The position numbers and the translations under genes were made by a program. A stretch of 64,000 bases of DNA from a virus: IMG/VR virus record IMGVR_UViG_3300042454_000021, positions 48,926 through 112,925 of that record; one strand, given 5' to 3'. Each line of letters opens with the position of its first letter. Position 1 is the stretch's first letter. The notes under the pieces were generated by a model that worked only from the letters and a program-made list of their open reading frames with translations, was not told the DNA's origin and searched no databases. Below, piece by piece: positions 2,186-55,521 of this stretch.

Positions 2186-2524
2186 ATGTTAGAGAAAATA
2201 GCCATCTATGCAGGAATAGCAATAATGTTATCTGTATACCCAGCAATTAAGATTAGAAAAGCCAACGCACTATCTAGATACCAAAATAGAGTTAGTGTAT
2301 TAGAACACAAGATTGATGAAATCAAAATCATAGAGCAAGATCCTGCTACAAGGTTTGTAAAGATTGGTAAGATAGAAGCCAAGATTGTAAAGGTGAGAGA
2401 GAAAGCTGATGAAACTATGAAGGTTTTAAAGCTACGTGCTAAGTGGGACTATCAGAAAGACCTAATAAAACTTAAGCGTAAACAGGTTTATCTTGATTCT
2501 ACAATTGTATTACCTGCTAAATAA
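2186..2524 (+). CDS. Membrane-anchored coiled-coil protein
   Basis: N-terminal TM segment. Confidence 0.5.
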   Translation: MLEKIAIYAGIAIMLSVYPAIKIRKANALSRYQNRVSVLEHKIDEIKIIEQDPATRFVKIGKIEAKIVKVREKADETMKVLKLRAKWDYQKDLIKLKRKQVYLDSTIVLPAK

Positions 2525-2601
2525 TCAATTTGATTAGAGTTGCTAATACAAATCATTAAAGTAAATTTTAATACTAATAATATATATTGTTTAAACTAAT
2601 A

Positions 2602-2609
2602 TATATTTG
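2602..2609 (+). promoter_or_regulatory. Bacteroidota-type -7 promoter box TAnnTTTG
   Basis: TATATTTG in the AT-rich gap just upstream of the 2636 ATG. Confidence 0.55.
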
Positions 2610-2635
2610 TAACATTCTATAAAAATATTCATACA

Positions 2636-3847
2636 ATGGCTATACCATCTAGACAAATAGGTTGGGGAACAGAGGAAAATCTGTTATGGCAAATCTCTAA
2701 GCAATTAGAGTATTTGTCAGGCATTACATACAATAGTGGTGGAGGATCAGGTTCAGGAACAAGTGGTTCCTCAGGAACTAGTGGTGGATCAGGTACTTCA
2801 GGATCAGCAGGTACTGCTGGATTAAGTGGATCTTCAGGAAGCTCAGGCGTAGCAGGTACATCTGGTTTATCTGGTGATAGATATAAAACAGAATCTGTTA
2901 CAGAGTTTACATTAGGAACTGGTGGAACTATAACTGTAGGTACAGGTTTATCATACACTACAGCCCAAGACATCATTATATCATATGATTCTACTCATCA
3001 TCAAGTATCGATGGTTACATCATATGATTCTGGTACAGGTATATTAGTATTTGGTGCACCTTCAGAAACTACAGGAACAGGAGCATACAGTGACTGGACA
3101 GTTAACCTTAATGGTGCTGCAGGTGGTAATGGAACTAATGGAACGTCTGGATCTGCTGGAACAAGTGGACTATCAGGAACATCAGGTGTTGCTGGTACGT
3201 CAGGCTCTGCTGGTACTTCAGGTGCTACAGGAACTAATGGGTCCTCAGGAACTTCTGCATCTAGTGGCACAGCTGGTACAGCTGGTGTAGCTGGAACTGC
3301 AGGTACGTCTGGCACAAGTAGTGGTCCTACTACATCTTATGGTTTATTTGCTCAAACAGCTGATAGTACACCTGTAACTGCTACTACTGTAGAAACAACA
3401 ATAGTAGGACCAGGAGTGGGTGGATTATCTGTTCCTGCAAATGGATTCTCTATTGGAGATTCTTTTACTTGTTTATTAGATGGTCAGATGTCTTGTACAA
3501 GTTCATCAACAGTACATATTCGTGTTAAAACATTATCAGGAGCACTTCTTGCTGATACTGGTATAATTGACTTGGCTGCTGCAACTAATAAAGCTTGGAT
3601 AATGAATTTGTATTTTACAATTAGAACATTAGGAGGAGCTGGTACTGCATCACTTTCATCTGGAGGATTGTTTTCTTACATTAGAAATGGAGGAACTCAG
3701 TTTGAAGGATATAATTTAAGTACAGTTAATACCACTACGTTTGACACTACAATAAGTAACACATTGGTAATCACTGCACAATGGGATAGTAATAGTGTAG
3801 ATAATTCAATAATTTCTCGAAACTTTACATTAACTAAAGTTTACTAA
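2636..3847 (+). CDS. Gly-Thr-Ser triplet-repeat (collagen-like) fibre or decoration protein
   Basis: G-X-Y repeats rich in S/T; N-terminus shared with 3849; central module shared with the 56540 fibre. Confidence 0.7.
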   Translation: MAIPSRQIGWGTEENLLWQISKQLEYLSGITYNSGGGSGSGTSGSSGTSGGSGTSGSAGTAGLSGSSGSSGVAGTSGLSGDRYKTESVTEFTLGTGGTITVGTGLSYTTAQDIIISYDSTHHQVSMVTSYDSGTGILVFGAPSETTGTGAYSDWTVNLNGAAGGNGTNGTSGSAGTSGLSGTSGVAGTSGSAGTSGATGTNGSSGTSASSGTAGTAGVAGTAGTSGTSSGPTTSYGLFAQTADSTPVTATTVETTIVGPGVGGLSVPANGFSIGDSFTCLLDGQMSCTSSSTVHIRVKTLSGALLADTGIIDLAAATNKAWIMNLYFTIRTLGGAGTASLSSGGLFSYIRNGGTQFEGYNLSTVNTTTFDTTISNTLVITAQWDSNSVDNSIISRNFTLTKVY

Positions 3848-3848
3848 C

Positions 3849-4262
3849 ATGGCAATTCCATCAAGACAGATAGGCTGGAGTACAAAGAGTAATTTGCTTT
3901 GGCAGATTTCTAAGCAATTAGAAGCTTTATCAGGCATTATGTATGCTAGAGGTAATCCATCAGTTACTTACTATAATGTAGCTGGTTGTGAAAGAATGGA
4001 ATACCATGTAATTAAATACACTGGTGCTGGCACATTAGCAGAAGGTACCATTGTTAATAATGCTACTCCTGAATGTTGGACTATAATAGATGCAGCAACA
4101 GGTCCTGAAGATGTAGGAACTATTGCCTATGTGTGGAACACTCCTAGTGATTGTCAACCTTGTATAGATTCTCATACAACTACTACTACATCTACTAGCA
4201 CATCGACTACAACATCCACCAGTACGTCGACAACAACAACTACGACTACTGCTGCACCTTAA
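3849..4262 (+). CDS. Putative virion protein with a MAIPSRQIGW N-terminus, a Cys domain and a Thr/Ser tail
   Basis: First ~32 aa closely match 2636; C-terminal run TTTTTSTSTSTTTSTSTSTTTTTTT. Confidence 0.7.
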   Translation: MAIPSRQIGWSTKSNLLWQISKQLEALSGIMYARGNPSVTYYNVAGCERMEYHVIKYTGAGTLAEGTIVNNATPECWTIIDAATGPEDVGTIAYVWNTPSDCQPCIDSHTTTTTSTSTSTTTSTSTSTTTTTTTAAP

Positions 4263-4286
4263 GAATTAAATTAAACCAACAACTAC

Positions 4287-5303
4287 ATGAAGGAATTAAA
4301 ATTTATCTGTGCCCAACCAGATGACACCTACTACACTTGGCAGGTACATCTATGGTTAGAAAGCTTAAGAAACATTGGACATTCAGATAAGGCTATTGTC
4401 CTCATCTTTATCCCATCGTTTAGAGATAAGAATGAGAAATGGCAACAGGTCGTAGACCTCTATCCAGAAGCAGAGTTTGCTTTCTATAAGGATCAAGATG
4501 GCGTAAGTGAAAAGTTAGGAATCTATATTCCTGTATTACGACCTTACTCATTGATGCGCTACTGGCAGGATCATCCAGACATGAAAGACAAAGCAGTGTT
4601 CTACTGCGACTCTGATGTCTTGTTTACAGATAAATTTAATGTTGATGCATATATTGATGACGATATAAACTATTTATCAGACACCAATAGCTACATTAAC
4701 GCTTCATACTTCGATAGTAAGATACACCAAGTGCTTCCTGAAAGGTTGCATGGATATAAAAAAATAGATGTTCTAGCTCAGGCTACAGAGATGTGTGGTA
4801 TCACACGTAAAATAGCAGAGGAGAACAACGACCACTCAGGAGGCGCTCAATATTTGTTAAAGAATATTGATGTTATGTTCTGGGAGAAGGTACTAAGAGA
4901 TTGCATTACAATACGTAGTTATTTATTAAACATAAACAGACTATATTTCAAGGATGAATCTGCAGGCTTTCAAAGTTGGTGTGCTGACATGTGGGCTGTC
5001 CTCTGGGCTATTTGGTTTAGAGGTGGGGTCACTAAGAATTTACCTGAAATGGAATTCTCTTGGTCGTCAGATCCTATTGACAAGGTCCACAGGTTAGGTA
5101 TATTACATAACGCTGGTATTGTCAATAAAGATATGGGTGACTACCCAGCATTTTACAAAGGTGAGTATCATATGGGTAAAGATCCATTTCAAGATCCTCA
5201 TTTAGAATTAGTATTCAATGATCCAAGAGCTCAACAAAAAGGTACACACTACTACGTTGAGCAAATGATGAAGTTAAAATATAAGTATAAATTAAATTAT
5301 TAA
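4287..5303 (+). CDS. GT-A glycosyltransferase resembling plant peptidyl-serine galactosyltransferase / hydroxyproline arabinosyltransferase (GT96/GT95-like)
   Basis: D..YYTWQ, YIPVLRP, DSD (DxD), GG, WCADMWA and ILHN motifs in the same order as recalled for SGT1/HPAT. Confidence 0.72.
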   Translation: MKELKFICAQPDDTYYTWQVHLWLESLRNIGHSDKAIVLIFIPSFRDKNEKWQQVVDLYPEAEFAFYKDQDGVSEKLGIYIPVLRPYSLMRYWQDHPDMKDKAVFYCDSDVLFTDKFNVDAYIDDDINYLSDTNSYINASYFDSKIHQVLPERLHGYKKIDVLAQATEMCGITRKIAEENNDHSGGAQYLLKNIDVMFWEKVLRDCITIRSYLLNINRLYFKDESAGFQSWCADMWAVLWAIWFRGGVTKNLPEMEFSWSSDPIDKVHRLGILHNAGIVNKDMGDYPAFYKGEYHMGKDPFQDPHLELVFNDPRAQQKGTHYYVEQMMKLKYKYKLNY

Positions 5304-5307
5304 TAAC

Positions 5308-5580
5308 ATGGCAATTCAGAGAGATTTAAAAGCATTTGTTCGCTACGATGGTAGTGGAAGGGTTGTTGCAGGCAGCCTTATTCTGAGAAAGAACAAGCCA
5401 AAAGTGGGAAGATGGCAAGAGATTCCAGCATATGAGTGCTGTAATTACATTCCTACAACTACGACTACTACTACAGCTAGTCCAACAACAACGACTACTT
5501 CTACTAGCACGTCTACTTCTACGACTACGTCAACTAGTACATCTACGTCTACAACTACTACAACGACAACTATTGTATAA
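5308..5580 (+). CDS. Small domain with a mucin-like Thr/Ser tail
   Basis: ~48 aa domain ending ECCN, then ~40 residues almost all T/S; paralog of 5583. Confidence 0.8.
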   Translation: MAIQRDLKAFVRYDGSGRVVAGSLILRKNKPKVGRWQEIPAYECCNYIPTTTTTTTASPTTTTTSTSTSTSTTTSTSTSTSTTTTTTTIV

Positions 5581-5582
5581 TC

Positions 5583-5885
5583 ATGGCAAATAGCAATAAT
5601 CAATTAAAAGCATACGTTCGTTTCGATGGAACAGGACGTATAGTACCAAGCAGCTTAATCTTACAAAGATTCAAGCCTAAGGATGGTAACTGGCAAGAGA
5701 TAGATGCAAAAGAATGTTGTAATTTTGTTCCAACAACTACAACAACTACCACTGCAACTCCTACTACTACAACTACGTCGTCTTCAACAAGTACGTCAAC
5801 ATCTACTAGTACTTCAACTAGTACAAGTACTTCAACGTCAACGTCTACTAGTACAACTACAACCACTACAACAGCAGCACCATAA
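5583..5885 (+). CDS. Small domain with a mucin-like Thr/Ser tail
   Basis: KA.VR.DG.GR.V..SLIL...KPK.G.WQEI.A.ECCN shared with 5308; T/S tail of about 47 residues. Confidence 0.8.
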   Translation: MANSNNQLKAYVRFDGTGRIVPSSLILQRFKPKDGNWQEIDAKECCNFVPTTTTTTTATPTTTTTSSSTSTSTSTSTSTSTSTSTSTSTSTTTTTTTAAP

Positions 5886-6298
5886 TGGCTAAATCATTAT
5901 TTCCACAAGAAATGTTAAGTAAAGCAAGTGATAGCGAGCTCTCGTTAGAGAGCATCGCTGCTAAGCTTACTTATTTTCATGAGCAATTACATTTGACTCA
6001 TTGGCAAACAAAAAGTTATGCAGAACATCAAGCCACAGGGGCATTGTACGATTATGTACATGATTTCAAAGATGGATTGATTGAGAAGCTTATGGGCTAT
6101 ACAGGTAAAAGACCTGGAGTTTATAAAATAGAACCTCTTACAGATTGTACAGCTGAAAAATGTGTAGCAGATATAATGTCATTTGCATCATCATTAAAGA
6201 TGTATGGAGAAAAGAATGCTTATCATGATGTATGTAACTTAGCTGATGCATTGTCTGGAGAGGCAGCAAAAACTAAATATCTATTAACCTTGTCTTAA
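5885..6298 (+). CDS. Ferritin/Dps-like four-helix protein (DUF5856-like)
   Basis: HWQT.SYAEH.A...LYD.....D.LIE..MG and C-terminal KYLLTL pattern. Confidence 0.75.
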   Translation: MAKSLFPQEMLSKASDSELSLESIAAKLTYFHEQLHLTHWQTKSYAEHQATGALYDYVHDFKDGLIEKLMGYTGKRPGVYKIEPLTDCTAEKCVADIMSFASSLKMYGEKNAYHDVCNLADALSGEAAKTKYLLTLS

Positions 6299-6582
6299 TG
6301 CAAGTAGAGAAGAGATTCTTTCCCAAAATAATGGCTGACAATGATGCAATATATTTCTCGCATCTAGAAGGCATTATAGATTCAGTTGATGAATTATCTA
6401 GTATGGAAGTTGTAAAACATCCTAAGCACTATTCATTCAGGATTGCACCTTCTCTTCCTATGTATACAAACATGTTAATAGAGGAACTATTTAAGTTCCA
6501 CAACAGATTCCAGATCAAACTAAATATGAGTAAAAGCATTAAAACAAATGCAGTTATTTCTTTTGAAATTGATTTGGGATGA
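6298..6582 (+). CDS. Hypothetical protein
   Basis: ORF translationally coupled to the upstream gene. Confidence 0.6.
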   Translation: MQVEKRFFPKIMADNDAIYFSHLEGIIDSVDELSSMEVVKHPKHYSFRIAPSLPMYTNMLIEELFKFHNRFQIKLNMSKSIKTNAVISFEIDLG

Positions 6583-6583
6583 T

Positions 6584-6591
6584 TATATTTG
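6584..6591 (+). promoter_or_regulatory. Bacteroidota-type -7 box with an upstream TTTG
   Basis: TATATTTG; TTTG at 6562-6565. Confidence 0.5.
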
Positions 6592-6613
6592 TTCAAACTA
6601 AACCAAAAATAAA

Positions 6614-6874
6614 ATGCAAATAGTAAAAGACGATGAGACAGGCGCTTCAGAAGTTCCTGCATACGATCCTTCAAAGAAATACACTTGGCATCAAGATGCT
6701 CAATTCATTCTTTCAGGTAACGAATTTGGAATGCTTTTAAACTCATTACGTGGAATTGTTTCTACGCCAGAGGCTAGAGTTATATTACGTGCTGCTGATG
6801 CAGCTGACGCTATTGAAAGTATAATGGCTAGGGCTGTTGAATCAGGATTAGTTATTGAATATCAAGAACAATAA
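6614..6874 (+). CDS. Hypothetical protein
   Basis: ORF with an A-rich leader. Confidence 0.6.
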   Translation: MQIVKDDETGASEVPAYDPSKKYTWHQDAQFILSGNEFGMLLNSLRGIVSTPEARVILRAADAADAIESIMARAVESGLVIEYQEQ

Positions 6875-7300
6875 ATGAACATTAAAGAATTCGATATGGG
6901 CAAGTACATCTTACTGATTGGTAAGGATGCTACTGACATATTCAATTACTATAAAGTTAAAGAAATGCATGGGCTAAATCTTAAAGATGCCCAAGCAGAA
7001 GAGGTTGATAAGACAAAAGGTAATGGTGTATACATCTATGGATTGACAAACTACGATCCTGCAGATAAAAAGCTAGTAGCTAAAGCTCCTTATAAACCTT
7101 TTCTTTTTTTAAACATGGGCACTTTTAAAAGATATAGTGCTGATGAACAGAAAACAGCTATAATGCATGAAACAATGCACATGGCTCTTCTCCTATACAA
7201 ATGGGATGCTGAGAAAAAATCAGAAGAAATAGTAACAATGGCTGAAGATGAGGCTAATAAAATCATCAAAAAACTCAAAGGTATTAAAGTTATAAAATAA
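6875..7300 (+). CDS. Putative zincin metalloprotease
   Basis: HETMH (HEXXH) followed by EE. Confidence 0.6.
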   Translation: MNIKEFDMGKYILLIGKDATDIFNYYKVKEMHGLNLKDAQAEEVDKTKGNGVYIYGLTNYDPADKKLVAKAPYKPFLFLNMGTFKRYSADEQKTAIMHETMHMALLLYKWDAEKKSEEIVTMAEDEANKIIKKLKGIKVIK

Positions 7301-7497
7301 TGGCAAAGGCAAACAAATCATTAGGTAGTCTTTCAGGACTAAAGGCTTCTAACAAACGTGTAGGACCTGTAGATCCTAAAGGTGCTTGGACAAAGGTTCA
7401 AGAGAAAACTTTAGCAGGAGCTAAAAGTGGTAAACCTTCATTGAAAAAAGATAAAGAACTTGGTGCTACCAAGATGGGTGCTAAAAAGAAGAAGTAA
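7300..7497 (+). CDS. Lys-rich small protein
   Basis: Coupled ORF, highly basic. Confidence 0.65.
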   Translation: MAKANKSLGSLSGLKASNKRVGPVDPKGAWTKVQEKTLAGAKSGKPSLKKDKELGATKMGAKKKK

Positions 7498-7733
7498 TGA
7501 TCTTTGAACCTGTTAACAGAATAGATGTATCTACACCTAAAGGTGATGGAGTCATCTGGCTTGTTACAGAATATGGTCATGAAACTGATACAATGTATAC
7601 AGTTATTATTAACGCCACAGGGGAGCTCTGGCAATTTATTCATAGAGATATTAGGGTAAAACCTAATGTAACATTTAGAAGATATGGCAAAGGCGAAAGA
7701 CAAGAATTGGATTCAGAAGGCAGTAAATCCTAA
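7497..7733 (+). CDS. Hypothetical protein
   Basis: Coupled ORF. Confidence 0.6.
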   Translation: MIFEPVNRIDVSTPKGDGVIWLVTEYGHETDTMYTVIINATGELWQFIHRDIRVKPNVTFRRYGKGERQELDSEGSKS

Positions 7734-7839
7734 ACATAAAGGTTTCTGCACCCCTATGACAAAAGCTACATGCACTCCCAAGCGCAAAGCATTAGCTATG
7801 ACATTTAAGAAAATGGCTGCAAAGCGTAAGGGTAAATAA
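7684..7839 (+). CDS. Lys-rich small protein, 51 aa (MAKAKDKNWIQKAV...)
   Basis: Translated manually; below the ORF-track length cutoff. Confidence 0.65.
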   Translation: MAKAKDKNWIQKAVNPKHKGFCTPMTKATCTPKRKALAMTFKKMAAKRKGK

Positions 7840-7841
7840 CT

Positions 7842-8165
7842 ATGGCTAAGTCATCACTAAAATCTATGGTGAAGTCTGGTCTTAGAGCTGGATTACGTAA
7901 CACACAACCTCAGAATGTCACTAGAGGTAATGGTGTTAAGAATCCACAGAAGGCTACAGCTTATGTAGGTAAGGGTGTCCTTAGAAATGGTGATAGTATA
8001 CCAGCAATCAAAGGAGCCATAACACCTGTACCTAATGGTCATCTTATAAAGAAAGATGGCACATCATTAAAGAATGGTGGTAAGATAAAGTGCTGGACTG
8101 GCTATGTGAAGAAAGGTACCAAGAAGAAAGGTGGTAGAACAGTTAATAACTGCGTTAAGAAATAA
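7842..8165 (+). CDS. Basic protein with a CWxGY...NCV module
   Basis: C-terminal KCWTGYVKKGTKKKGGRTVNNCVKK. Confidence 0.65.
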   Translation: MAKSSLKSMVKSGLRAGLRNTQPQNVTRGNGVKNPQKATAYVGKGVLRNGDSIPAIKGAITPVPNGHLIKKDGTSLKNGGKIKCWTGYVKKGTKKKGGRTVNNCVKK

Positions 8166-8293
8166 TGAGAAAGACTACTAAACTAGATGCTTTCAGCAAG
8201 GTTAAGAAAGCCATGAAGCCTAAAAAAGAAAAGATGTGGATGGATAAGGTTAAGAAAAATTTATCTAAAGTTCAATCTATTAAGAAAAGATAA
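8165..8293 (+). CDS. Lys-rich peptide, 42 aa
   Basis: Translated manually: MRKTTKLDAF...; coupled to neighbours at both ends. Confidence 0.6.
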   Translation: MRKTTKLDAFSKVKKAMKPKKEKMWMDKVKKNLSKVQSIKKR

Positions 8294-8553
8294 TGGCAAA
8301 TAAAGCTATTGTTAAAGCTGGTGGTCAAACTCATAAAGTTTTCAAAAAGAAAACTGATAAGGGTATAGGTGATAAGGGAGACATCGTTGTAGATCATACA
8401 GCTGGAATACCAGCAGGTAAATGGGATAAGATTAATCTCACTGCTAAATCTAGAGCTAAAACTGTTAAACAAGGTGTTGCTTCAGTTAAGAAGTGGCACA
8501 AAGACAATCCTGACTATGGCAAAAAGCGAAGCATGGCAAAGAAAGGAAGGTAA
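8293..8553 (+). CDS. Lys-rich small protein
   Basis: Coupled ORF. Confidence 0.65.
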   Translation: MANKAIVKAGGQTHKVFKKKTDKGIGDKGDIVVDHTAGIPAGKWDKINLTAKSRAKTVKQGVASVKKWHKDNPDYGKKRSMAKKGR

Positions 8554-8770
8554 GAATCCTTCTGGTGGCCTAAATGCAAAAGGTAGGGCTTCCTACAACA
8601 GAGCTAACCCAGGTAAACCTGGTCTTAAAGCTCCACAACCTGAAGGTGGTCCTCGCAAGAAATCATTCTGTGCTAGGATGTCAGGCATGAAAAAGAAACT
8701 AACGTCTGCAAAAACTGCAAACGATCCTAATTCTCGTATCAATAAATCTCTACGTAAGTGGAAGTGTTAA
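8516..8770 (+). CDS. Conserved basic phage protein (DUF6321-like)
   Basis: AWQRKEGKNPSGGLNAKGRASY...RKKSFCARM...DPNSRINKSLRKWKC; start reassigned to the ATG at 8516. Confidence 0.7.
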   Translation: MAKSEAWQRKEGKNPSGGLNAKGRASYNRANPGKPGLKAPQPEGGPRKKSFCARMSGMKKKLTSAKTANDPNSRINKSLRKWKC

Positions 8771-8771
8771 C

Positions 8772-9227
8772 ATGAAAAAATTAAAGAAAGCTCAAGTTGG
8801 AAGTTTAGTAAAAGGACTATTTAAAGGTGCAATTAAAGGCACTGGAAAAGCTGCAGCTAAAACAGCTCCTAAAGTATTAACTTTAGCTGAAAAAGTAGAG
8901 GCTAAAAAATTTGCACAAACACCATTAGAAAAGAAAATAGGAAAAGATGCAGATAAAACTTTAAAAAAGTTAAACATTAATAAGTACAATGAAACTCCTC
9001 CACCAGCATTCAAATTAACAGCAGAACAAAAAGCTAATAATGATAGAATTCTTAAGAATGCTAACAATAATATGAAGTCTGGTGGTATGATTAAACGTGC
9101 TGATGGTTCTATGTCTAAGCGTGGTTTATGGGACAACATTCGTGCTAACAAAGGCTCAGGTAAGAAACCTACAGCTGCTATGTTAAAGCAGGAGAAAAAA
9201 ATTAAAGCTCAAACTAAAAAGAAATAA
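8772..9227 (+). CDS. Lys/Ala-rich basic protein
   Basis: KKAQxG and MKSGG motifs; GLWDNIRA module. Confidence 0.7.
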   Translation: MKKLKKAQVGSLVKGLFKGAIKGTGKAAAKTAPKVLTLAEKVEAKKFAQTPLEKKIGKDADKTLKKLNINKYNETPPPAFKLTAEQKANNDRILKNANNNMKSGGMIKRADGSMSKRGLWDNIRANKGSGKKPTAAMLKQEKKIKAQTKKK

Positions 9228-9229
9228 CA

Positions 9230-9625
9230 ATGAAAACAATGAAAAAAGCACAAGCTGGTGCATCTGTTAAAATTAAAGTTAAAGCTAAACCATTACCTAA
9301 AGCAGGTAAACAAACTCCTGCAGACTTCCTTCCAGGATCTTATGATAAGTTACCACGTACAAAAAGTGGTGGAGCTAATTATGATGGACCTAAAGCTGGA
9401 CCTCGTGAGATGAATCCTAAAGGTATGTCTAAAAATGGTAGTATGATGAAAAAAGCTAAAGTTGGTGGAGAATTTGGTATGTTATCAGTGAAAGCTGGTA
9501 TCGATAAGAACCCTAATCCTACAGCTGCTGATCGTATTGCAGGTGCTACTAAAGGTAAGGCTAAATCAGGAGCTATGATGAAAAAAGGTGGTGCTATGAA
9601 AAAATGTAAATATGGCTGTAAATAA
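9230..9625 (+). CDS. Lys-rich basic protein
   Basis: Repeated MKKAxxG and KxGG motifs. Confidence 0.7.
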   Translation: MKTMKKAQAGASVKIKVKAKPLPKAGKQTPADFLPGSYDKLPRTKSGGANYDGPKAGPREMNPKGMSKNGSMMKKAKVGGEFGMLSVKAGIDKNPNPTAADRIAGATKGKAKSGAMMKKGGAMKKCKYGCK

Positions 9626-9626
9626 T

Positions 9627-9809
9627 ATGAAAAAGAAAGCTCAATCAGGTGCAGCTGTTTCTAACAAGTTCACCATCACTGCAAAACAAGCTCCAGATAA
9701 ATTAGGTAAAAAACCTTCTAAGGTTGATACTACAAAATCATTTGAGAGTAATAAATTCACTATACCTAAGAAGACTATGAAGTCTGGAGGTAAAATGAAA
9801 AAGAAATAA
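9627..9809 (+). CDS. Lys-rich basic peptide
   Basis: MKKKAQSG...MKSGGKMKKK; internal SNKFTI repeat. Confidence 0.65.
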   Translation: MKKKAQSGAAVSNKFTITAKQAPDKLGKKPSKVDTTKSFESNKFTIPKKTMKSGGKMKKK

Positions 9810-9976
9810 TGATTAAGAAAAAAACAAAGCCTGTGCTTAAAATGCACAAGCCTGCAAAGGCTCCTAAAGTGGCACCTCCTAAACCAGTTGATGCTAACTA
9901 TATGAAGGAGGCTGATACGCCATCACGTCTTAAGAGTAAGATGTGGCCTTTGAAACAAAAAAGACTTTCTAAATAG
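9809..9976 (+). CDS. Lys/Pro-rich peptide, 55 aa
   Basis: Translated manually: MIKKKTKPVLK...; TAATG coupling. Confidence 0.6.
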   Translation: MIKKKTKPVLKMHKPAKAPKVAPPKPVDANYMKEADTPSRLKSKMWPLKQKRLSK

Positions 9977-10018: not shown

Positions 10019-10050
10019 AAAAAGGGAACCATTTGGCTCCCTTTTTCTTT
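10019..10050. terminator. Bidirectional intrinsic terminator at the convergence point
   Basis: aaaaagggaacc-attt-ggctcccttttt, flanked by A and T tracts. Confidence 0.8.
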
Positions 10051-10586
10051 TATGGTTGTAGTGAATTATAGGTAGATAGCACTTTATTAATGTAATATTT
10101 GTTCTTTGCTTTATTATAACAGTTTTCAGCAAATATACCATCTGCATCTCTTCTACTTAAAACAAATCTTTCATTACCTACTAATGATGTATGTAAAATA
10201 AAGTTATGACTATCTACATAGCTTAATTTAACTATGTTTCCATACAATCTATGTACACCACTGGTCCATACTTGATCAAATGATATAAAGTCATTATCTA
10301 AATCTTTGATATTATCCCATAAGTCTGGATGCATAGTTGTATCATCATCATTAAAGTATATCCAACCTTCTGTTACTAGATCGATTGCTAAGTTTCTTTG
10401 TGCATTTCCACACACGCTGTTTATATCTTTAATGCAATAAGCTTCACATTCTGGGATGTTTTCTGGAATAGTCTCTGAATCAAAAACAACAATCCACCTG
10501 TAGTTATCTTTAGGGATATTGATGCTTTTTGAAACAGCATCTAAAAACTCTGGTCTACTACAAGGGGTGATAATATTTAAGAACAT
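10050..10586 (-). CDS. GT-A fold glycosyltransferase (GT2-like)
   Basis: IITPCSR, GNAQRN.A.D and YFNDDD motifs. Confidence 0.8.
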   Translation of the reverse strand: MFLNIITPCSRPEFLDAVSKSINIPKDNYRWIVVFDSETIPENIPECEAYCIKDINSVCGNAQRNLAIDLVTEGWIYFNDDDTTMHPDLWDNIKDLDNDFISFDQVWTSGVHRLYGNIVKLSYVDSHNFILHTSLVGNERFVLSRRDADGIFAENCYNKAKNKYYINKVLSTYNSLQP

Positions 10587-11230
10587 TCTTTATCATTTCT
10601 ATGTAACACCAATAACTTATCATTATCCCATCCTGGAGAAAACTTTAACTCATGATCAGCCATAATAAATGTAGCTGATGAGAAGTATTCTTTAATACCA
10701 TCTATAGCTTCTATATATCTATTCTCATCTTCCTTAAGGAAAATGTCTTCGATAACAATTATACCTCCTGGTTTAACACACTTATATGCTACGTTTAGAA
10801 ATCTAATCTGATCCTCAAATACATGTGTAGAGTCTTCTATGATTATATCAAAGAAATCATTCTTGTTAAATACGCTCTTAATAGATTCTTCATTGGTAAC
10901 ATCTATATGAATGTATGTAGCATTTCTCAGATTATCACGTATTCCTTTTTGCAATTTATCATCATGATATTCATATCCAAATAAAGCTGCATTAGGAAAG
11001 TATTCTCTCCAACATAACATTGAATGGTTGTCCAATATTCCCACTTCACCTATTGTAATTTCCTTATAACGAAGTTGCGAGAACAATAGGTTATATATAG
11101 ATGTATAAGCATGTCTATGCAAATGAGATTCATTGTGATAAGGACACTTATCTGTAGGATACTTAACAGCAAGTTTACACAAATCTGTATTAGCATGTGT
11201 AGAGTCAATACTTATTCTATTTATTTGCAT
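10577..11230 (-). CDS. Class I SAM-dependent methyltransferase (sugar O-methyltransferase-like)
   Basis: EVGI...S...W..YFP, FDIIIEDSTH and VKPGGIIVIED motifs. Confidence 0.8.
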   Translation of the reverse strand: MQINRISIDSTHANTDLCKLAVKYPTDKCPYHNESHLHRHAYTSIYNLLFSQLRYKEITIGEVGILDNHSMLCWREYFPNAALFGYEYHDDKLQKGIRDNLRNATYIHIDVTNEESIKSVFNKNDFFDIIIEDSTHVFEDQIRFLNVAYKCVKPGGIIVIEDIFLKEDENRYIEAIDGIKEYFSSATFIMADHELKFSPGWDNDKLLVLHRNDKECS

Positions 11231-11969
11231 TGATGAAATCTTTTAACATTTGATTATAATCTTTATCCCAATGAGGATTAAGTGTGACTTCGCCTACAGG
11301 AACATTTCCTTTGCGTCTTTCTCTTTCTATATGAGCACTATGTCTTTGTATAGCGTTGAGTTTTCCAGAATGATCTGTACCCTCACCACTCATATGATAT
11401 CCTCTACCACCCCACATATAGAACCAACTAGCTTCTTCTTTAGGTGGCTTAGCAAACAGCCTTCCCCCATAAGCATTGATGTTTTCAATAAAAGTCATAT
11501 CATATCCAGCATTCTCAAGAGGATGCCCTCCTATAGCTTTCCAAGCTGACTTTCTAAAAACAATACCAGAGTTACCTATCCAACCAACTTGTTCAATACC
11601 TGTAATGTGACATAGTACACCTACTTCCCAATGAATAATGTTTACATCATTAGTCATGTATTTAACTACATTCTGTAAATGATTTGGTAGGGCTACATCA
11701 TCATCATCCCATTGACATATAATTTCTCCTTGACACATCTCTGTTGCATAGTTTTCTTTTTCTCCTATGGTATCAAAAGTTTTGTCTAGGTTAACTATCT
11801 TAACTTGTGGATGATCAAATACAAGAGTTTGTAAAGGATAATCATTAACTATGATAAGCTCACACTTGTCAGCAGGATAGTCCTGCTTGAGGAAAGATTC
11901 TACACTCTCCTCAAGCGTGGACACTCTACCATAAGTTATACACTTACATGAAATGAAAGGTAGTTCCAT
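11217..11969 (-). CDS. Glycosyltransferase family 2
   Basis: SFLKQDYP, ELIIVND, IGEKEN and QWDDDD motifs. Confidence 0.85.
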   Translation of the reverse strand: MELPFISCKCITYGRVSTLEESVESFLKQDYPADKCELIIVNDYPLQTLVFDHPQVKIVNLDKTFDTIGEKENYATEMCQGEIICQWDDDDVALPNHLQNVVKYMTNDVNIIHWEVGVLCHITGIEQVGWIGNSGIVFRKSAWKAIGGHPLENAGYDMTFIENINAYGGRLFAKPPKEEASWFYMWGGRGYHMSGEGTDHSGKLNAIQRHSAHIERERRKGNVPVGEVTLNPHWDKDYNQMLKDFINANK

Positions 11970-11970
11970 A

Positions 11971-12258
11971 TTACCAAACTAAAATCACATCAAATGGTGT
12001 AACTAATAACTTATTCTCATCACCAATAGGAATCACTGGGGCTTTACCTAATGCTCCTGGATCAACTAAGATCTTATCACCTATGTTAATGCTAGTAACA
12101 AGATCACCTACAGCATGTACTGTAAGCTTATTAAGTTTCTGCATCATCTCTCTTTCAAGAGCTTCTTTTGTGTTCTCGTCCACAATAAGTTTACCTTCAT
12201 CTTTCTTAGGAAGGTCTAAAAGGATTCTATTTCCTAGTAATTTTTTAAAATCTGCCAT
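11971..12258 (-). CDS. groES: GroES-like co-chaperonin
   Basis: LGNRILL, VHAVG, IGDKIL and DVILV pattern; 95 aa. Confidence 0.75.
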   Translation of the reverse strand: MADFKKLLGNRILLDLPKKDEGKLIVDENTKEALEREMMQKLNKLTVHAVGDLVTSINIGDKILVDPGALGKAPVIPIGDENKLLVTPFDVILVW

Positions 12259-19766: not shown

Positions 19767-19774
19767 CAAAGCTA
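19767..19774 (-). promoter_or_regulatory. Bacteroidota-type -7 box TAGCTTTG
   Basis: About 20 nt upstream of the HNH start codon. Confidence 0.45.
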
Positions 19775-21304
19775 CACAATAACTACTCTTCCTCCAATAA
19801 CTTGCTTCATTTCATCAAGACTAGCAATGATGTTATCTACAGTTTTAGGATTGATAGTAGGGAAATTAAAGTTGTACTTCTTAGCCTCAGCTGCGAATCC
19901 TTCTTTAACTTTCTCTGCTAAGTTATCAAGCTCCTGGATAGCATAGGCGTCATCCAACTGCATAGTATCAAAGTCTAGATCATGCAATATAGATGTAGCC
20001 TCCTCACGTGGTACAGTCATGATTGGTAGATACTCATAACATCTACCTTTGTGCTCACCAATGCCCACAACCTTCATAGGATTGATTAACACTAACATAG
20101 ACTGATCACCACATCCTACATAGTGAATCTGATCTGCTGTAAAGTGTAAACCTGCTGCTGCACAATCTTGTGTAGACCAGTTACACTCTTCCATAGGCAT
20201 CTTTACAGGAACGCCTACACGAATGTCAAACGTCTTAGTCCAGTCGTCTGTGAAACGATTCTCTGCACGATTAGGGAGATCAAGATATAAATCTGTCAAG
20301 TTACCAATTCTCTCACCATGATCTACAGTCCATGTATTAGTGTGCTCATACTCATCTACCTCTCCTGATCCACCACATTGCTCACATTCTAGCCATCTGT
20401 CATCATCAAAATCATAGAATTCACGATCTTCATCATCAGCATCCCAACCACCTTCTCCTAGACAATCTGGACATGTTGTAGTTTTATGAGTTTCCTCTTT
20501 AAAATAGTCATCATGATGTACAAGTTTGTACTCACCATTTTGTAAGAATACGCCATAATTATCAGGGCTCTTCTTCCACACAGCTTTCACCTTGTTGTAG
20601 CTATTGCTAATAAAGTGTACAAGCTCTGCACCACCATGCAATGTAACTACATTACGTAATGCAACAAAGAAACCTTGCTTAGTGATTCTAAAGCTGTTGT
20701 CTTTTAAGAATCGAAATAACTCATCAGCTACCTCAGCACGTGGATTTAAACAACACCACATCCAGAAACGCTTTAAGCCTTCCCAACGCTCATTAACTTC
20801 GTCATCATTCCAATCTTCTTGAAACAAGATGATGAATTCCTCAATCAATAACTGAGGCATGCTGCGATCAATACCTGTCATATACAAAGCACCATCACGC
20901 TCTTCAAACTCATCTTCTGCAAAATCGATTAAACTCTTGATACCTGCTGATAATGATTCATTGCGCTTAACTTCTTCTTCAAACTTACGTTTCTCTTCTA
21001 GTCCTTCTTTAGAACTACATACAGTGAATAGCTCCATTTCAGTTTTTGAGTTACGAGCACGATTGAAATCATCAATTGTAGCAGGATATTTACTAACGAT
21101 GTTACCATCATTAAGAATAATAGTTAATACGTCATTTACAAACTTGATGTTTGAATATGGCTTAAGAAGAATTGTACTACTAGTATCGCTAGATGTAGTA
21201 GTAAGAGTGTACCCAGGAGCTGTTGTTTCTTTCAACAACATCTCTGCTAATTTTGTGTCTCTATCAATAAGAGACTTGAAAAACTCTAAACTTGCATTGT
21301 TCAT
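19772..21304 (-). CDS. rIIB: rIIB-like protein with an inserted CxxCxGxG zinc finger
   Basis: FW..C.LNP, LF.FL, IT..G.FVA.R, C..GLH and KGRCYEY motifs; adjacent to rIIA. Confidence 0.8.
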   Translation of the reverse strand: MNNASLEFFKSLIDRDTKLAEMLLKETTAPGYTLTTTSSDTSSTILLKPYSNIKFVNDVLTIILNDGNIVSKYPATIDDFNRARNSKTEMELFTVCSSKEGLEEKRKFEEEVKRNESLSAGIKSLIDFAEDEFEERDGALYMTGIDRSMPQLLIEEFIILFQEDWNDDEVNERWEGLKRFWMWCCLNPRAEVADELFRFLKDNSFRITKQGFFVALRNVVTLHGGAELVHFISNSYNKVKAVWKKSPDNYGVFLQNGEYKLVHHDDYFKEETHKTTTCPDCLGEGGWDADDEDREFYDFDDDRWLECEQCGGSGEVDEYEHTNTWTVDHGERIGNLTDLYLDLPNRAENRFTDDWTKTFDIRVGVPVKMPMEECNWSTQDCAAAGLHFTADQIHYVGCGDQSMLVLINPMKVVGIGEHKGRCYEYLPIMTVPREEATSILHDLDFDTMQLDDAYAIQELDNLAEKVKEGFAAEAKKYNFNFPTINPKTVDNIIASLDEMKQVIGGRVVIV

Positions 21305-21321
21305 TTTGTGATTGTTTTAGT

Positions 21322-21365
21322 GTAGAATCTGTCACAAATATACAACATATTTGTGACAAATCTAC
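21322..21365. repeat. Long inverted repeat overlapping a TATATTTG box
   Basis: tgtcacaaatat-acaac-atatttgtgaca with a gtaga/tctac extension. Confidence 0.7.
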
Positions 21366-21400
21366 GTGAAATTTTTGATATAACTAATTGATAATCAAGT

Positions 21401-23752
21401 TCATGCAGCCTCTTCTAGCTCGCTAACCTCTTTTTTTTCAACAAGACGATAGTTAGATAGATTCATTCGCATATTCTTGTAACGACACATGTCTTTCATG
21501 ACATCTAATAAACCTTTATAATCAAAAGCATTTCCATAACTACCATGCATTTTGTTACATAACTTCTTCATGAAAGGATGTTTAGAAAAGAGTTTATCTG
21601 TACGATTGAGTTTAGTAAACATCTCTAAGTCATAAAGATTATGCTTAGAGGCATATTCATCAAGCTTAAGATCAGTATTAGTTTCTTTAGCCCATGTATG
21701 AATCATCTTCTCTTGATAATTATATAGATCATCAAGATCTTTCTTTAAACCTGAGTTAACTTCATCTAATACATTACGAACATCAAACACTCTAGTGTAT
21801 AATCCTTTAAACATGAAGATTAACTTAGCTGTCATCATTCTCTTGAATGGTTTGTTATGACCTTTTAAGAATGTAGCTAGAGGCATAAAGTTGTGAAGAT
21901 TGTATATCTCTAACACTTTAATCTCTCTATCAGACATGATGACAAACTTTACCTCATTCTCTACTTTCTTAAACATTCCAAATAGATGATCAAGAGATGA
22001 GCGCTCTTCTTCTTTAGCATAAACAGTGAGCATCTTTCTTTTATGAAGAGTTTTACCATCATACACTGTAGGAACAAACTTAGCATTAGTTCCTGTCTCT
22101 CTTTCTGGAGCTGTTGCTTGCTTAACATTAACGTCACCCTTCTCCTTTATTCTACCATTCTTGGCAGCTTTAGGTTTAGGCTTGTGGTTCTTAGCTTTGT
22201 CAGCAACAATCCATGCTTCAGGAATATCAATAGTATCAAGATCTATAAAGTTATCTGTAACCTTCTTAATACAGGTTTGGAATTCAGTTATCACCTCTCT
22301 CCATTGTGACTTAGGATAGTTATATAACTTTAACAAGTCATGATAACAACGCATGTCTGGATTAGAATAATGAGTAGTTGTTGCCCAACCTTTATCTTTA
22401 GAAAACAATGTAAAAGGATGAGACTTCTTAAGAAACTTTGCAGACTTCTTAGCCCATAGTTCTTTGATGTAACGACGTTTGCGATCACCAAATATTCCTG
22501 TGAATATAACAATCTTATCAGCTCTATGTAAAGATGTGAAAGTTACATCTGAATCCCATCTACTACGAGACTCAGATATTCTAGCCCTGTAATTACTTAG
22601 CTCATATTTACATTCATATTCATTAAGCATATAGTCTCTTATTTTATAAAGACTTTCTGCTGTAAAATACTTACATCCTATTAATGTAGGCGTACGTGCT
22701 GGTATTGTAGCATGCTTTAGTATTTCAGATATCTCCCACTTATCACCATTGTGATCTGTAATGTGTCTAAATCCAGTAGAGAAATGATCCACCACTGCAC
22801 GTACGTCATCTGTATCAGCAATAGTTTCATTATACTTAGTCATGAACTCATTAGCCAGGGTTGTAATCTTACTCTTGATGAGTTGCTTAGCTTCCTGAGT
22901 GTATCTTAACGATTCTCTATTTGGCGTAGGAAACAATCCATCTGTAAGACTAAACCTTAATCCTATTCTAGAATGATAAATTCTACTAATACCAAGCTTA
23001 TCAAAGTCTAATGGATAATATACATTGTCTAGACATACGTGCATTTCATGATCAGGACATACGTCTGAGATTTGATAGTGCTCACTTCTATAGATGTTGA
23101 ATGTATTGCTCATATCAGGAACATCAAAATAAACATTCTCAAAATAAGCAAGCTGTTCCTTAATCTTCTTCTTGAATTCATAGGCATCAGTCCACTTAAC
23201 AGGAATGATAATCTTAACACCATTACCTTCAGAAGTTGCACTATCAGACAACAAGTCAATCGAGTTGACTTCTTCTCCTTCATACATCATATACTTACGC
23301 TCTCTTCCATCTTTACGTGCAATGAAATAGAAGCTAGAAGCATATGCAAGAGGGGCTTTGAAACCAAGGCCCATCATACCAAGCTCTGTGGTAGAGTTAC
23401 GCTTTGTGCTCTTACCATACTTGCTAATGATGTTCTCTACATCATCAGCATCTAAACCAATACCAAAATCCTCAACAGAGAATTCATAGCTATTATTAGT
23501 AGACTTAAAGCTAACAATAATAGGATGATTGTCCTTACCTGCTCTACGATGAGAGTCTAGTGCATTACTAGCACACTCTCTAACAGTTGAACCAATTGCG
23601 TCTGCATATAGGTTCTTACTTAACATCTGCATCAAAACCTGTGCACTGTCAAGATCTAACGACATACCAATAGTACCTTGTGTACTACCAACTTCTTGTA
23701 TTAACGATTGTGTTTGTTTTTCTAAGATCATATCTCTACTTTTTCTAGCCAA
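21401..23752 (-). CDS. rIIA: rIIA-like protein (GHKL ATPase)
   Basis: RE..SNALDSH, DFGIGL, STK, G.MGLGFK, PNRESLRY. Confidence 0.88.
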   Translation of the reverse strand: MARKSRDMILEKQTQSLIQEVGSTQGTIGMSLDLDSAQVLMQMLSKNLYADAIGSTVRECASNALDSHRRAGKDNHPIIVSFKSTNNSYEFSVEDFGIGLDADDVENIISKYGKSTKRNSTTELGMMGLGFKAPLAYASSFYFIARKDGRERKYMMYEGEEVNSIDLLSDSATSEGNGVKIIIPVKWTDAYEFKKKIKEQLAYFENVYFDVPDMSNTFNIYRSEHYQISDVCPDHEMHVCLDNVYYPLDFDKLGISRIYHSRIGLRFSLTDGLFPTPNRESLRYTQEAKQLIKSKITTLANEFMTKYNETIADTDDVRAVVDHFSTGFRHITDHNGDKWEISEILKHATIPARTPTLIGCKYFTAESLYKIRDYMLNEYECKYELSNYRARISESRSRWDSDVTFTSLHRADKIVIFTGIFGDRKRRYIKELWAKKSAKFLKKSHPFTLFSKDKGWATTTHYSNPDMRCYHDLLKLYNYPKSQWREVITEFQTCIKKVTDNFIDLDTIDIPEAWIVADKAKNHKPKPKAAKNGRIKEKGDVNVKQATAPERETGTNAKFVPTVYDGKTLHKRKMLTVYAKEEERSSLDHLFGMFKKVENEVKFVIMSDREIKVLEIYNLHNFMPLATFLKGHNKPFKRMMTAKLIFMFKGLYTRVFDVRNVLDEVNSGLKKDLDDLYNYQEKMIHTWAKETNTDLKLDEYASKHNLYDLEMFTKLNRTDKLFSKHPFMKKLCNKMHGSYGNAFDYKGLLDVMKDMCRYKNMRMNLSNYRLVEKKEVSELEEAA

Positions 23753-54381: not shown

Positions 54382-55521
54382 ATGGCTGATTTTTCATTAA
54401 CCACCCTGTTCGTAGTTCCTGTAGGCAACACATTGCCTAGCTCTGGATCTACGCAAAACTTAACTGCTGGTCAGTTTGGTTTATTCTTGAACACGTATGC
54501 TGTTGCAACCACTGGTAACATTGCTGCTGCTCCATACTTCTATGCTGCTCAAGGACGTACTAATACGTATTTACAAGGCTCGAAGCGTTCTGACAAGATC
54601 TCTTCTGCTAATGTAACTGAATGGTACAAAGTTGTTGGTAACCCTGTTGCTGCTAACCAAGTAACTGACATTTCTGACTTCACTGTAAAACCAGGTGAAA
54701 TTGTAACTTTAACGTTACGTGGATTCTCTTCTTACATCAACACATTGTACTTCAATGGTTTCACTCGTAGTGTAACTGTTAATGCTCCTTGTTTAGCTTG
54801 TGGTGGAGATCCTTGTACTGATGTTGACGTTCCTGCATTGATCGATGATTTGATCTATCACTTAGAATTGAAAGCTCCAGGTAACAACCCTGACAACATT
54901 TCATTCTCTACGTTTTATCAATTCCAACGTATTGGTAATAATCAAAATGCAATCTTACGTATCTCTGGTAAGCCATTAACTGTTTATGGACAGCCATGTG
55001 ATATCGCTGCATTCCCTTGGGAGTATGATCGTATGTACTTTAGAACTTTCATCTTCTCTGGTCCAGCTACTACTGCTGACTTTATTGTAGCAGATCCTTG
55101 TAACAATGTGGCTCTAGTGGAAGTTACTCAACGTGCAACTTATCCATCTGGAACTTCTGCTGAGATTCAACAATTAGAGAAGAACTTCTATAGCTACCAA
55201 GCTGGATATTTGAAGCATCTATACAGAATGAATGGTTACAATGAGAACTTTGAGTCTTGGGTAACTGATGGTACTGTGTATGATACTTACTATATCAAGT
55301 TCAACGAATATGATAAGTCTGCTTATCAGTGGGGTGATTATATCCACGAAGATTCAACTGTTATCATTGCTGCTCCTCAAGCTTTAGCTGAAGACATCGA
55401 AGATATCTTAGTTGCTGCTTTAGGATTGCCAACTGATGATAGTGGTCCAATCACTTCAACTACTAGTACAACTACTACTATTTGGCCTTCAACTAGTACA
55501 ACTACTACCTTGCTTCCTTAA
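54382..55521 (+). CDS. Abundant structural protein (auxiliary capsid protein candidate) with a Thr/Ser tail
   Basis: MCP-like codon bias; position in the module; C-terminal TSTTSTTTTIWPSTSTTTTLLP. Confidence 0.65.
   Translation: MADFSLTTLFVVPVGNTLPSSGSTQNLTAGQFGLFLNTYAVATTGNIAAAPYFYAAQGRTNTYLQGSKRSDKISSANVTEWYKVVGNPVAANQVTDISDFTVKPGEIVTLTLRGFSSYINTLYFNGFTRSVTVNAPCLACGGDPCTDVDVPALIDDLIYHLELKAPGNNPDNISFSTFYQFQRIGNNQNAILRISGKPLTVYGQPCDIAAFPWEYDRMYFRTFIFSGPATTADFIVADPCNNVALVEVTQRATYPSGTSAEIQQLEKNFYSYQAGYLKHLYRMNGYNENFESWVTDGTVYDTYYIKFNEYDKSAYQWGDYIHEDSTVIIAAPQALAEDIEDILVAALGLPTDDSGPITSTTSTTTTIWPSTSTTTTLLP

Follow-up and report, generated by a model that had tools for sequence, protein, structure and literature searches.

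The nearest described biology to the locus reported here is the O-glycosylation of mycobacteriophage virions. In the phages Che8, Corndog, and Myrna, capsid and tail-tube subunits bear glycans at their C-termini (Freeman et al. 2023, cited in PMC12619734). The structural operon of Corndog encodes an O-methyltransferase, two glycosyltransferases, and a GlcNAc-transferase, all of which were detected in infected cells but not in virions (PMC4351075). Here, we describe a glycosyltransferase (GT) open reading frame (ORF) of 338 aa and three adjoining genes for proteins with threonine/serine (Thr/Ser) tails in IMG/VR virus record IMGVR_UViG_3300042454_000021. The stretch of DNA analyzed, called the window, is the final 64 kb (positions 48,926 to 112,925) of this 112,925-bp record, which has a CheckV completeness of 98%. 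The best reading of the locus is a phage-encoded protein O-glycosylation module, to which we assign a probability of roughly 65%.

The resemblance to mycobacteriophages concerns gene placement and tails. In both, phage GT genes lie in or beside structural genes, here next to a collagen-like fibre gene, and structural proteins carry Ser/Thr-bearing C-terminal extensions, which in this genome occur on a 379-aa and a 1,683-aa protein. The differences concern hosts, enzyme, and tags. The phages considered here infect Firmicutes and Bacteroidota or come from lakes, whereas the hosts of mycobacteriophages are Actinobacteria. The enzyme belongs to the unannotated family phrog_4417, which has no Pfam counterpart. 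The tags are long and nearly pure poly-Thr/Ser, and in the window phage they are placed on dedicated mini-proteins.

Mucin-type GalNAc-transferases (GT27) are retaining GT-A enzymes that prime dense O-glycans on Thr/Ser-rich tandem regions, which become hydrated, extended "bottle-brush" structures. They differ from the phage GT in their lectin domain and Golgi location, and they gave it neither a sequence match nor a top-ranked fold match; the resemblance is functional only. GT8 enzymes (glycogenin, LgtC, Skp1 alpha-galactosyltransferase, and GlyE of the pneumococcal PsrP pathway) are alike in fold, at 10-12% identity. However, the Pfam model Glyco_transf_8 (PF01501) is unmatched by the window GT at E<=1 and absent from the tallies of 138 relatives, the phage enzyme has about 80-100 extra residues as helical insertions, and its proposed acceptor is poly-Thr.

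The GT gene lies among genes for Thr/Ser-tailed proteins

The ORF list places the GT in a run of six tightly packed + strand genes between 2636 and 6298 (Table 1). From the 137-aa tailed protein through the GT to the 90-aa and 100-aa tailed proteins, the intergenic gaps are 24, 4, and 2 nt; the gene that follows overlaps the last of them by 1 nt. Co-transcription of the GT ORF and the tailed genes is plausible from this layout. A site scan found no + strand terminator-like site in 2300-7000, and promoter-like sites at the locus were not above shuffles. A contig from a lake metatranscriptome library, belonging to a relative of 90-95% identity, covers 2400-6131; such contigs do not prove transcription, as DNA carry-over is possible.

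The tails are encoded by ACT, ACA, ACG, ACC, AGT, AGC, TCA, TCT, and TCG, and Tandem Repeats Finder returned only degenerate periodicity (63-81% matches) in their DNA. Because nine codons are mixed and the periodicity is merely degenerate, the tails are not simple microsatellites. ORFs, runs, and codon counts thus agree with the preliminary description of the window, which had reported three co-transcribed small proteins flanking the GT with Thr/Ser C-termini in varied codons. Among six-frame ORFs of the whole genome, six 20-residue segments reach at least 15 Ser/Thr. Three of the six lie within 1 kb of the GT gene, so the clustering of tails at the GT is not due to chance. Cysteines often border Thr tracts, as in ECCN-x-PTTTT here (tract borders at 4200-4262, 5440-5460, and 5715-5735) and in SCTTTT...AAPCEC and GSCTTTT...VTCG in loci from the blind scan described below; they could be structural or part of enzyme recognition.

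The tailed proteins share N-terminal modules

The 137-aa protein opens with 38 residues that match the N-terminus of the collagen-like fibre at 76% identity, and this shared module suggests that both dock at the same place on the virion. The 90-aa and 100-aa proteins share an N-module of ~47 aa at 66% identity. Each relative of the locus has one to three genes with this module, which there leads into poly-Thr blocks (T7-8, with AAP or VAP in between) in some proteins and into globular C-domains as long as ~320 residues in others. A role in docking or assembly is more probable for the module than one as a recognition leader, because the enzyme would also serve capsid and tail-tube tails that lack it. 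The small proteins resemble minimal fibres, in which the conserved N-module probably docks on the particle and the mucin-like tail serves as a C-terminal display.

In one relative of 90-95% identity, represented by a contig from a lake metatranscriptome library, the C-terminal parts of the fibre (3277-3848) and of the 137-aa protein (3955-4267) are swapped for unrelated sequence of different length, and the shared N-terminal modules of both are kept; the pattern resembles modular display-domain swapping.

Two further carriers are encoded elsewhere in the genome. The tract-bearing protein of 1,683 aa matches virion structural PHROGs (1.5e-97). The 379-aa protein is 94-100% conserved, including the tail itself, in the best 120 of 3,626 matches, and it had no match among isolated phages. 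Fold prediction from this shallow alignment (94-100% identity) gave a predicted local distance difference test (pLDDT) score of 32 and no usable fold.

The 338-aa ORF is predicted to be a GT8-like glycosyltransferase

The motifs QPDDTYYTWQ, YIPVLRP, CDSDV, WCADMWA, and ILHN occur in the ORF in the order first reported from the letters alone. Residues 4-329 align with positions 1-290 of the 293 in the phrog_4417 profile (E 5.5e-50). No Pfam family matched the protein at E<=1, and PDB sequence searches with the protein and its 62-member profile returned nothing meaningful. The family is large, with 2,655 matches among 90%-identity clusters (748 clusters at 50% identity), and none of the best 120 of these 2,655 carries a Pfam domain or a label beyond "hypothetical protein." It occurs in 77 GenBank phage records, including phages of Enterococcus, Lactobacillus, Staphylococcus, Lactococcus, Clostridium, and Chryseobacterium.

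An AlphaFold2 model from a 62-sequence alignment reached a pLDDT of 97.6 and a predicted template modeling score of 0.94. It consists of a single Rossmann-like alpha/beta/alpha nucleotide-sugar-binding domain of the GT-A kind, compact and soluble, with nothing resembling a membrane anchor. Across 62 relatives with 31-47% identity, residues D108, D110, Q229, H274, and K291 do not vary, and the equivalent columns are conserved in 76 further relatives (138 in total). D108 and D110, the pair of the metal-binding-type DxD motif (DSD), sit in the model at the end of strand 103-106, and the order of the invariant residues appears to resemble the DxD / Q / H...K site of GT8. In two fold searches, retaining GT-A enzymes, including WbbM, UGGT, and LARGE1, ranked at the top. 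The nearest solved folds are retaining GT8, GT6, and GT24 enzymes; glycogenin, the top match, 6mw8, LgtC, GlyE, and 3tzt are within the nine best. Model, fold matches, and invariant residues agree on a DxD-bearing glycosyltransferase, as had been proposed, and the ORF is almost certainly a GT-A, GT8-like enzyme.

Longer relatives fuse the GT domain to GT2, GT7C, GT6, GT25, GT29, GT32-like, or methyltransferase domains. Because of these fusions to other GT and methyltransferase domains, we consider that the GT domain works inside glycan-building sets. The window encodes a methyltransferase of the kind that is fused to the family in other phages, as well as a GT2 enzyme, which is tied to the GT as a candidate partner only by analogy with the fused forms (Table 1). 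A few family members are fused to radical S-adenosylmethionine (SAM) plus SPASM domains, a peptide-modifying enzyme type; these fusions hint that some phages or bacteria couple the modification of peptides to their glycosylation.

Enzyme and tracts occur together across phages

A profile search with a 14-member alignment gave 80 IMG/VR loci with 63-97% GT identity, which form one lineage. In all 79 evaluable close relatives, an ORF no more than 1.5 kb from the GT has a Ser/Thr run of at least six. Tract density is 0.865 per kb near the GT versus 0.023 per kb at distances of at least 3 kb. A stricter threshold leaves 75 tracts, every one on the strand of the GT, and 53 of these fall within the first kb downstream of it.

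The distant set comprises nine GenBank phage lineages with GTs 27-33% identical to that of the window. Every one has a Thr-rich tract directly upstream or at most 2.5 kb upstream of the GT, and in eight of the nine the gene just upstream, often that for the capsid or tail tube, ends in such a tract. The major tail protein of Enterococcus phage phiFL1A, encoded upstream of the GT, has a 27-residue end that is almost all Thr/Ser, and the corresponding major structural protein of Lactococcus phage 1706 ends in T10-HHD. In Lactobacillus phage iLp84 the upstream gene is mostly poly-Thr, and the capsid and tail proteins each end in T7-SK. Upstream genes elsewhere encode a 17-residue Ser/Thr run (S then T16; Staphylococcus phage PMBT8), gp18 with a Thr-rich tail (Clostridium phage phiCTP1), a capsid protein with a Thr-rich tail (Enterococcus phage 4995_1), and TTVAP repeats (Levilactobacillus phage ENFP1). 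In Enterococcus phage Planchet, the tracts are on a small ORF that follows the capsid gene, upstream of the GT, and on a tail protein. The tracts of Chryseobacterium phage MA9V-3 are internal, in the gene directly upstream and in one ~1.7 kb further upstream. In phiFL1A, 1706, iLp84, 4995_1, phiCTP1, and Planchet, the GT separates the capsid or tail-tube gene from the structural gene that follows, and capsid and/or tail-tube tails are present in phiFL1A, 1706, iLp84, R3.3, 4995_1, and phiCTP1.

The small ORF of Planchet (4742-4885) is unannotated, encodes 48 aa that are largely poly-Thr/Ser, and overlaps the end of the capsid gene (4772) in another frame. It could be a frameshift-made capsid extension, a separate mini-gene, or a sequencing error.

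Enzyme and tails are also gained and lost jointly. Among tail-tube orthologues of 50-60% identity, the tail is present in both from GT-bearing genomes (phiFL1A and R3.3) and in none of the five whose genomes yielded no GT when the whole record was searched (streptococcal prophages Javan47, Javan505, and Javan311; Bassarid; and phiJL-1). For a blind test in the reverse direction, a DNA pattern of ten Thr codons yielded 80 viral loci and a control pattern of ten Pro codons yielded 79. A family GT, 29-34% identical to that of the window, lies immediately downstream of the tract ORF in 6 of the 80 poly-Thr loci and in none of the 79 controls (Fisher p = 0.03). The co-occurrence of GT homologs with Thr/Ser tails that the preliminary description had put up for testing thus holds in phages of different host phyla.

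Several points weigh against protein O-glycosylation as the reading of the locus. In 60 of 66 blind-scan loci no family GT was present in the locus DNA scanned, so poly-Thr tracts also exist without the enzyme. Since the 80 close relatives are one lineage, their tracts show conservation and not independence. The gain/loss sample is small (2 versus 5). Some N-module proteins that adjoin the GT in relatives have no Thr tail, and the three small tailed proteins are at most candidate virion parts. A literature search found no paper on the GT family, nor any glycan, donor, or acceptor for its members. Finally, GlyE (GT8), the closest solved bacterial analogue that acts on Ser-rich proteins, extends glycans and does not prime them.

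The abundance of poly-Thr in viral contigs that show no family GT in the DNA scanned would suit another account of the locus, in which the tracts are flexible linkers or spacers, the GT acts on a host envelope polymer (teichoic acid, capsule, or lipopolysaccharide) or a small molecule, and adjacency reflects shared late expression. The internal position of the tract between domains in several large proteins fits this account too. However, it leaves unexplained why a tract gene adjoins the GT, on the strand of the GT in every case, in nine GenBank lineages that are unrelated and in six loci of the blind scan, why the tail-tube orthologues of GT-less genomes have no tails, and why a pattern typical of linkers, poly-Pro, has no GT beside it. 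The modelled GT, compact, soluble, and free of a membrane anchor, is also unlike envelope-polymer enzymes. We therefore regard linkers with an unrelated GT as rather unlikely, and consider that the GT probably O-glycosylates the poly-Thr/Ser tracts of phage proteins.

The GT may act as the priming enzyme

The activity that we propose is that of a cytoplasmic GT-A enzyme, metal and nucleoside diphosphate (NDP)-sugar dependent and probably retaining, which would transfer sugar directly onto hydroxyls of phage poly-Thr/Ser tracts during late infection. Its putative acceptors in the window phage are the three small tailed proteins, the 379-aa protein, and the 1,683-aa virion structural protein. 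The GT2 enzymes and methyltransferase encoded at 10050-11969 may extend and methylate the glycan. The analysis shows the fold, the conserved residues of catalytic type, the adjacency of the genes, and the joint gain and loss of enzyme and tails. We infer the attachment of sugar, as well as its identity, the priming step, and the placement of the products on the virion; that the products coat the virion of the window phage has about an even chance.

If the tails are glycosylated, the GT might instead only extend a sugar placed by the host or by another phage enzyme, in the manner of GlyD and GlyE (GT8) on streptococcal serine-rich repeat proteins. In five small GT-carrying siphophages, searches that covered GT2 and GT1/GT4 as other GT classes gave no match, and the same searches gave matches in 14 of 14 control genomes. 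If phage enzymes modify the tails of these five, the GT must act on the peptide. A common host priming enzyme is unlikely, because the family spans phages of Firmicutes and Bacteroidota and uncultured lake phages. Glycogenin, the top fold match, itself acts on a protein hydroxyl. Extension alone is therefore improbable, and we lean toward the GT being the priming enzyme. The proposal in the preliminary description that it primes O-glycans on the neighbouring tails fits both the tract association and the siphophages without other searched GTs; what was not supported as stated is kinship with the plant families GT95 and GT96.

Phage glycosyltransferases often modify DNA (PMC12619734), and the GT might likewise glycosylate hypermodified bases as a protection from restriction, with the tails unrelated. 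However, in small temperate siphophages its gene is embedded in structural or late modules, with the capsid or tail-tube gene on one side and the tail chaperones on the other, and no base-hydroxymethylation genes were seen in the annotated stretches examined. The fold is that of a GT8-like GT-A enzyme. The DNA glucosyltransferases of T4 are GT-B enzymes, and this also counts against DNA as the substrate. In addition, DNA modification would leave the tract association unexplained. We consider it highly improbable.

The enzyme would work like plant peptidyl O-glycosyltransferases

The motif series had first been read as that of the plant enzymes HPAT (GT95) and SGT1 (GT96). Like them, the GT would attach the initial sugar to a hydroxyl within a repetitive, extended stretch of protein; unlike it, they are Golgi membrane proteins that act on hydroxyproline or Ser of extensins. 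GT95 is predicted to be GT-A-like, and GT96 possibly has a novel fold (PMC8476585).

Membership in GT95 or GT96, or specific kinship with them, was not borne out. The Pfam model HPAT (PF23452; gathering cut-off 23.9 bits) did not match the window protein at E<=1, and it matched 3 of 138 relatives at E 0.012-0.013, below the family cut-off. Neither the HPAT nor the DUF7164 model had a match in the genome, and HPAT had none in five phage records; these searches carry little weight, since no control genome gave a match. Searches among longer proteins returned solely phage and bacterial fusions and no SGT1-like eukaryotic relatives, and no GT95/96 structures were among the fold matches from the libraries searched. 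Fused domains aside, HPAT is nevertheless the sole recurrent Pfam family among the weak matches to the GT domain itself. In addition, 11 of the 30 nearest ESM-Atlas (language-model) clusters list HPAT on 10% of members, which is a lead and no test. Thus, the data support the statement that the GT "works like" a peptidyl O-glycosyltransferase, rather than that it "is a member of" GT95 or GT96; kinship with these families is a possibility.

Genomic surroundings and phage identity

Table 1. Genes of the window discussed in the text (aa, amino acids; positions are those of the window)
Feature	Position	Strand	Remarks
403-aa collagen-repeat tail-fibre-like protein	2636..3847	+	Pfam Collagen 5e-11; tail-fibre PHROGs
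137-aa tailed protein, proposed acceptor	3849..4262	+	Fibre-like N-terminus, small Cys-containing domain, 25-residue pure Thr/Ser tail
338-aa glycosyltransferase ORF, phrog_4417	4287..5303	+	Predicted soluble GT-A; DxD = D108-S-D110
90-aa tailed protein, proposed acceptor	5308..5580	+	~47-aa N-module (KAFVRYDGSGR...ECCN), T7, 29-residue pure Thr/Ser tail
100-aa tailed protein, proposed acceptor	5583..5885	+	Paralogue of 5308-5580; T7, 37-residue pure Thr/Ser tail
DUF5856 protein, phrog_858 ("starvation-inducible transcriptional regulator", Dps/ferritin-like)	5885..6298	+	
178-aa possible third glycosyltransferase	10050..10586	-	Weak GT2-like similarity, E 0.0026, below cut-off
217-aa SAM-dependent methyltransferase, candidate sugar methylase	10577..11230	-	phrog_21658 1.8e-12; Methyltransf_24/31 matches below cut-off
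250-aa GT2-family glycosyltransferase, candidate glycan extender	11217..11969	-	
379-aa tailed protein in head/structural module, candidate acceptor	54382..55521	+	C-terminus = ITSTTSTTTTIWPSTSTTTTLLP

The DUF5856 gene follows the tailed genes in the window phage and in nearly all of the 80 IMG/VR relatives. Between it and the GT2 genes, at 7300-9976 on the + strand, about 10 consecutive small ORFs (42-151 aa) encode extremely Lys-rich, basic proteins, many starting MAK... or MKK...; these could be packaged DNA-binding or internal proteins. By eye, a 188-aa ORF truncated by the window start (2-568) is like a GH19/chitinase-type lysozyme and may be an endolysin, and the ORF at 11971-12258 is like the co-chaperonin GroES. 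PHROG matches place rIIB and rIIA homologues at 19772-23752.

The genome encodes rIIA/rIIB, ribonucleotide reductase, and DNA polymerase. Its TerL is 40% identical to that of Leptolyngbya phage Lbo-JY46, 33% to that of Cellulophaga phage phi17:2, and 26-30% to those of crAss-like phages. The earlier label "crAss-like" can therefore be kept only in a loose sense, on the 26-33% shared with phi17:2 and crAss-like phages. Lbo-JY46 was the sole match for the capsid protein, and megablast of the first 20 kb of the window against GenBank phages gave no match. The GT locus recurs in lake and freshwater metagenomes from many studies.

Significance

A literature search turned up neither glycosylated Thr-tailed proteins of phages nor phage enzymes similar to GT95/96. 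In a broader form, the proposal is of a portable module, a poly-Thr tag plus one priming GT of a new GT-A family, with which phages that infect several bacterial phyla would O-glycosylate any tagged structural protein; in its boldest form, the GT would share ancestry with plant GT95/GT96. We hold this wider proposal to be evenly balanced between true and false.

If the tails are glycosylated, virion glycosylation would be widespread and modular, beyond mycobacteriophages. The trait would reach dairy, enterococcal, and staphylococcal phages that matter to fermentation control and therapy, as well as lake phages. Glycan coats can alter antibody recognition, stability, aggregation, adhesion to mucus or host capsule, and proteomic masses. 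Several carriers of the GT are cultured, which makes the idea directly testable. If true, it would give a function to phrog_4417, a large "hypothetical" phage family, and a soluble enzyme that acts on poly-Thr tags would be a tool for glycoprotein production in bacteria.

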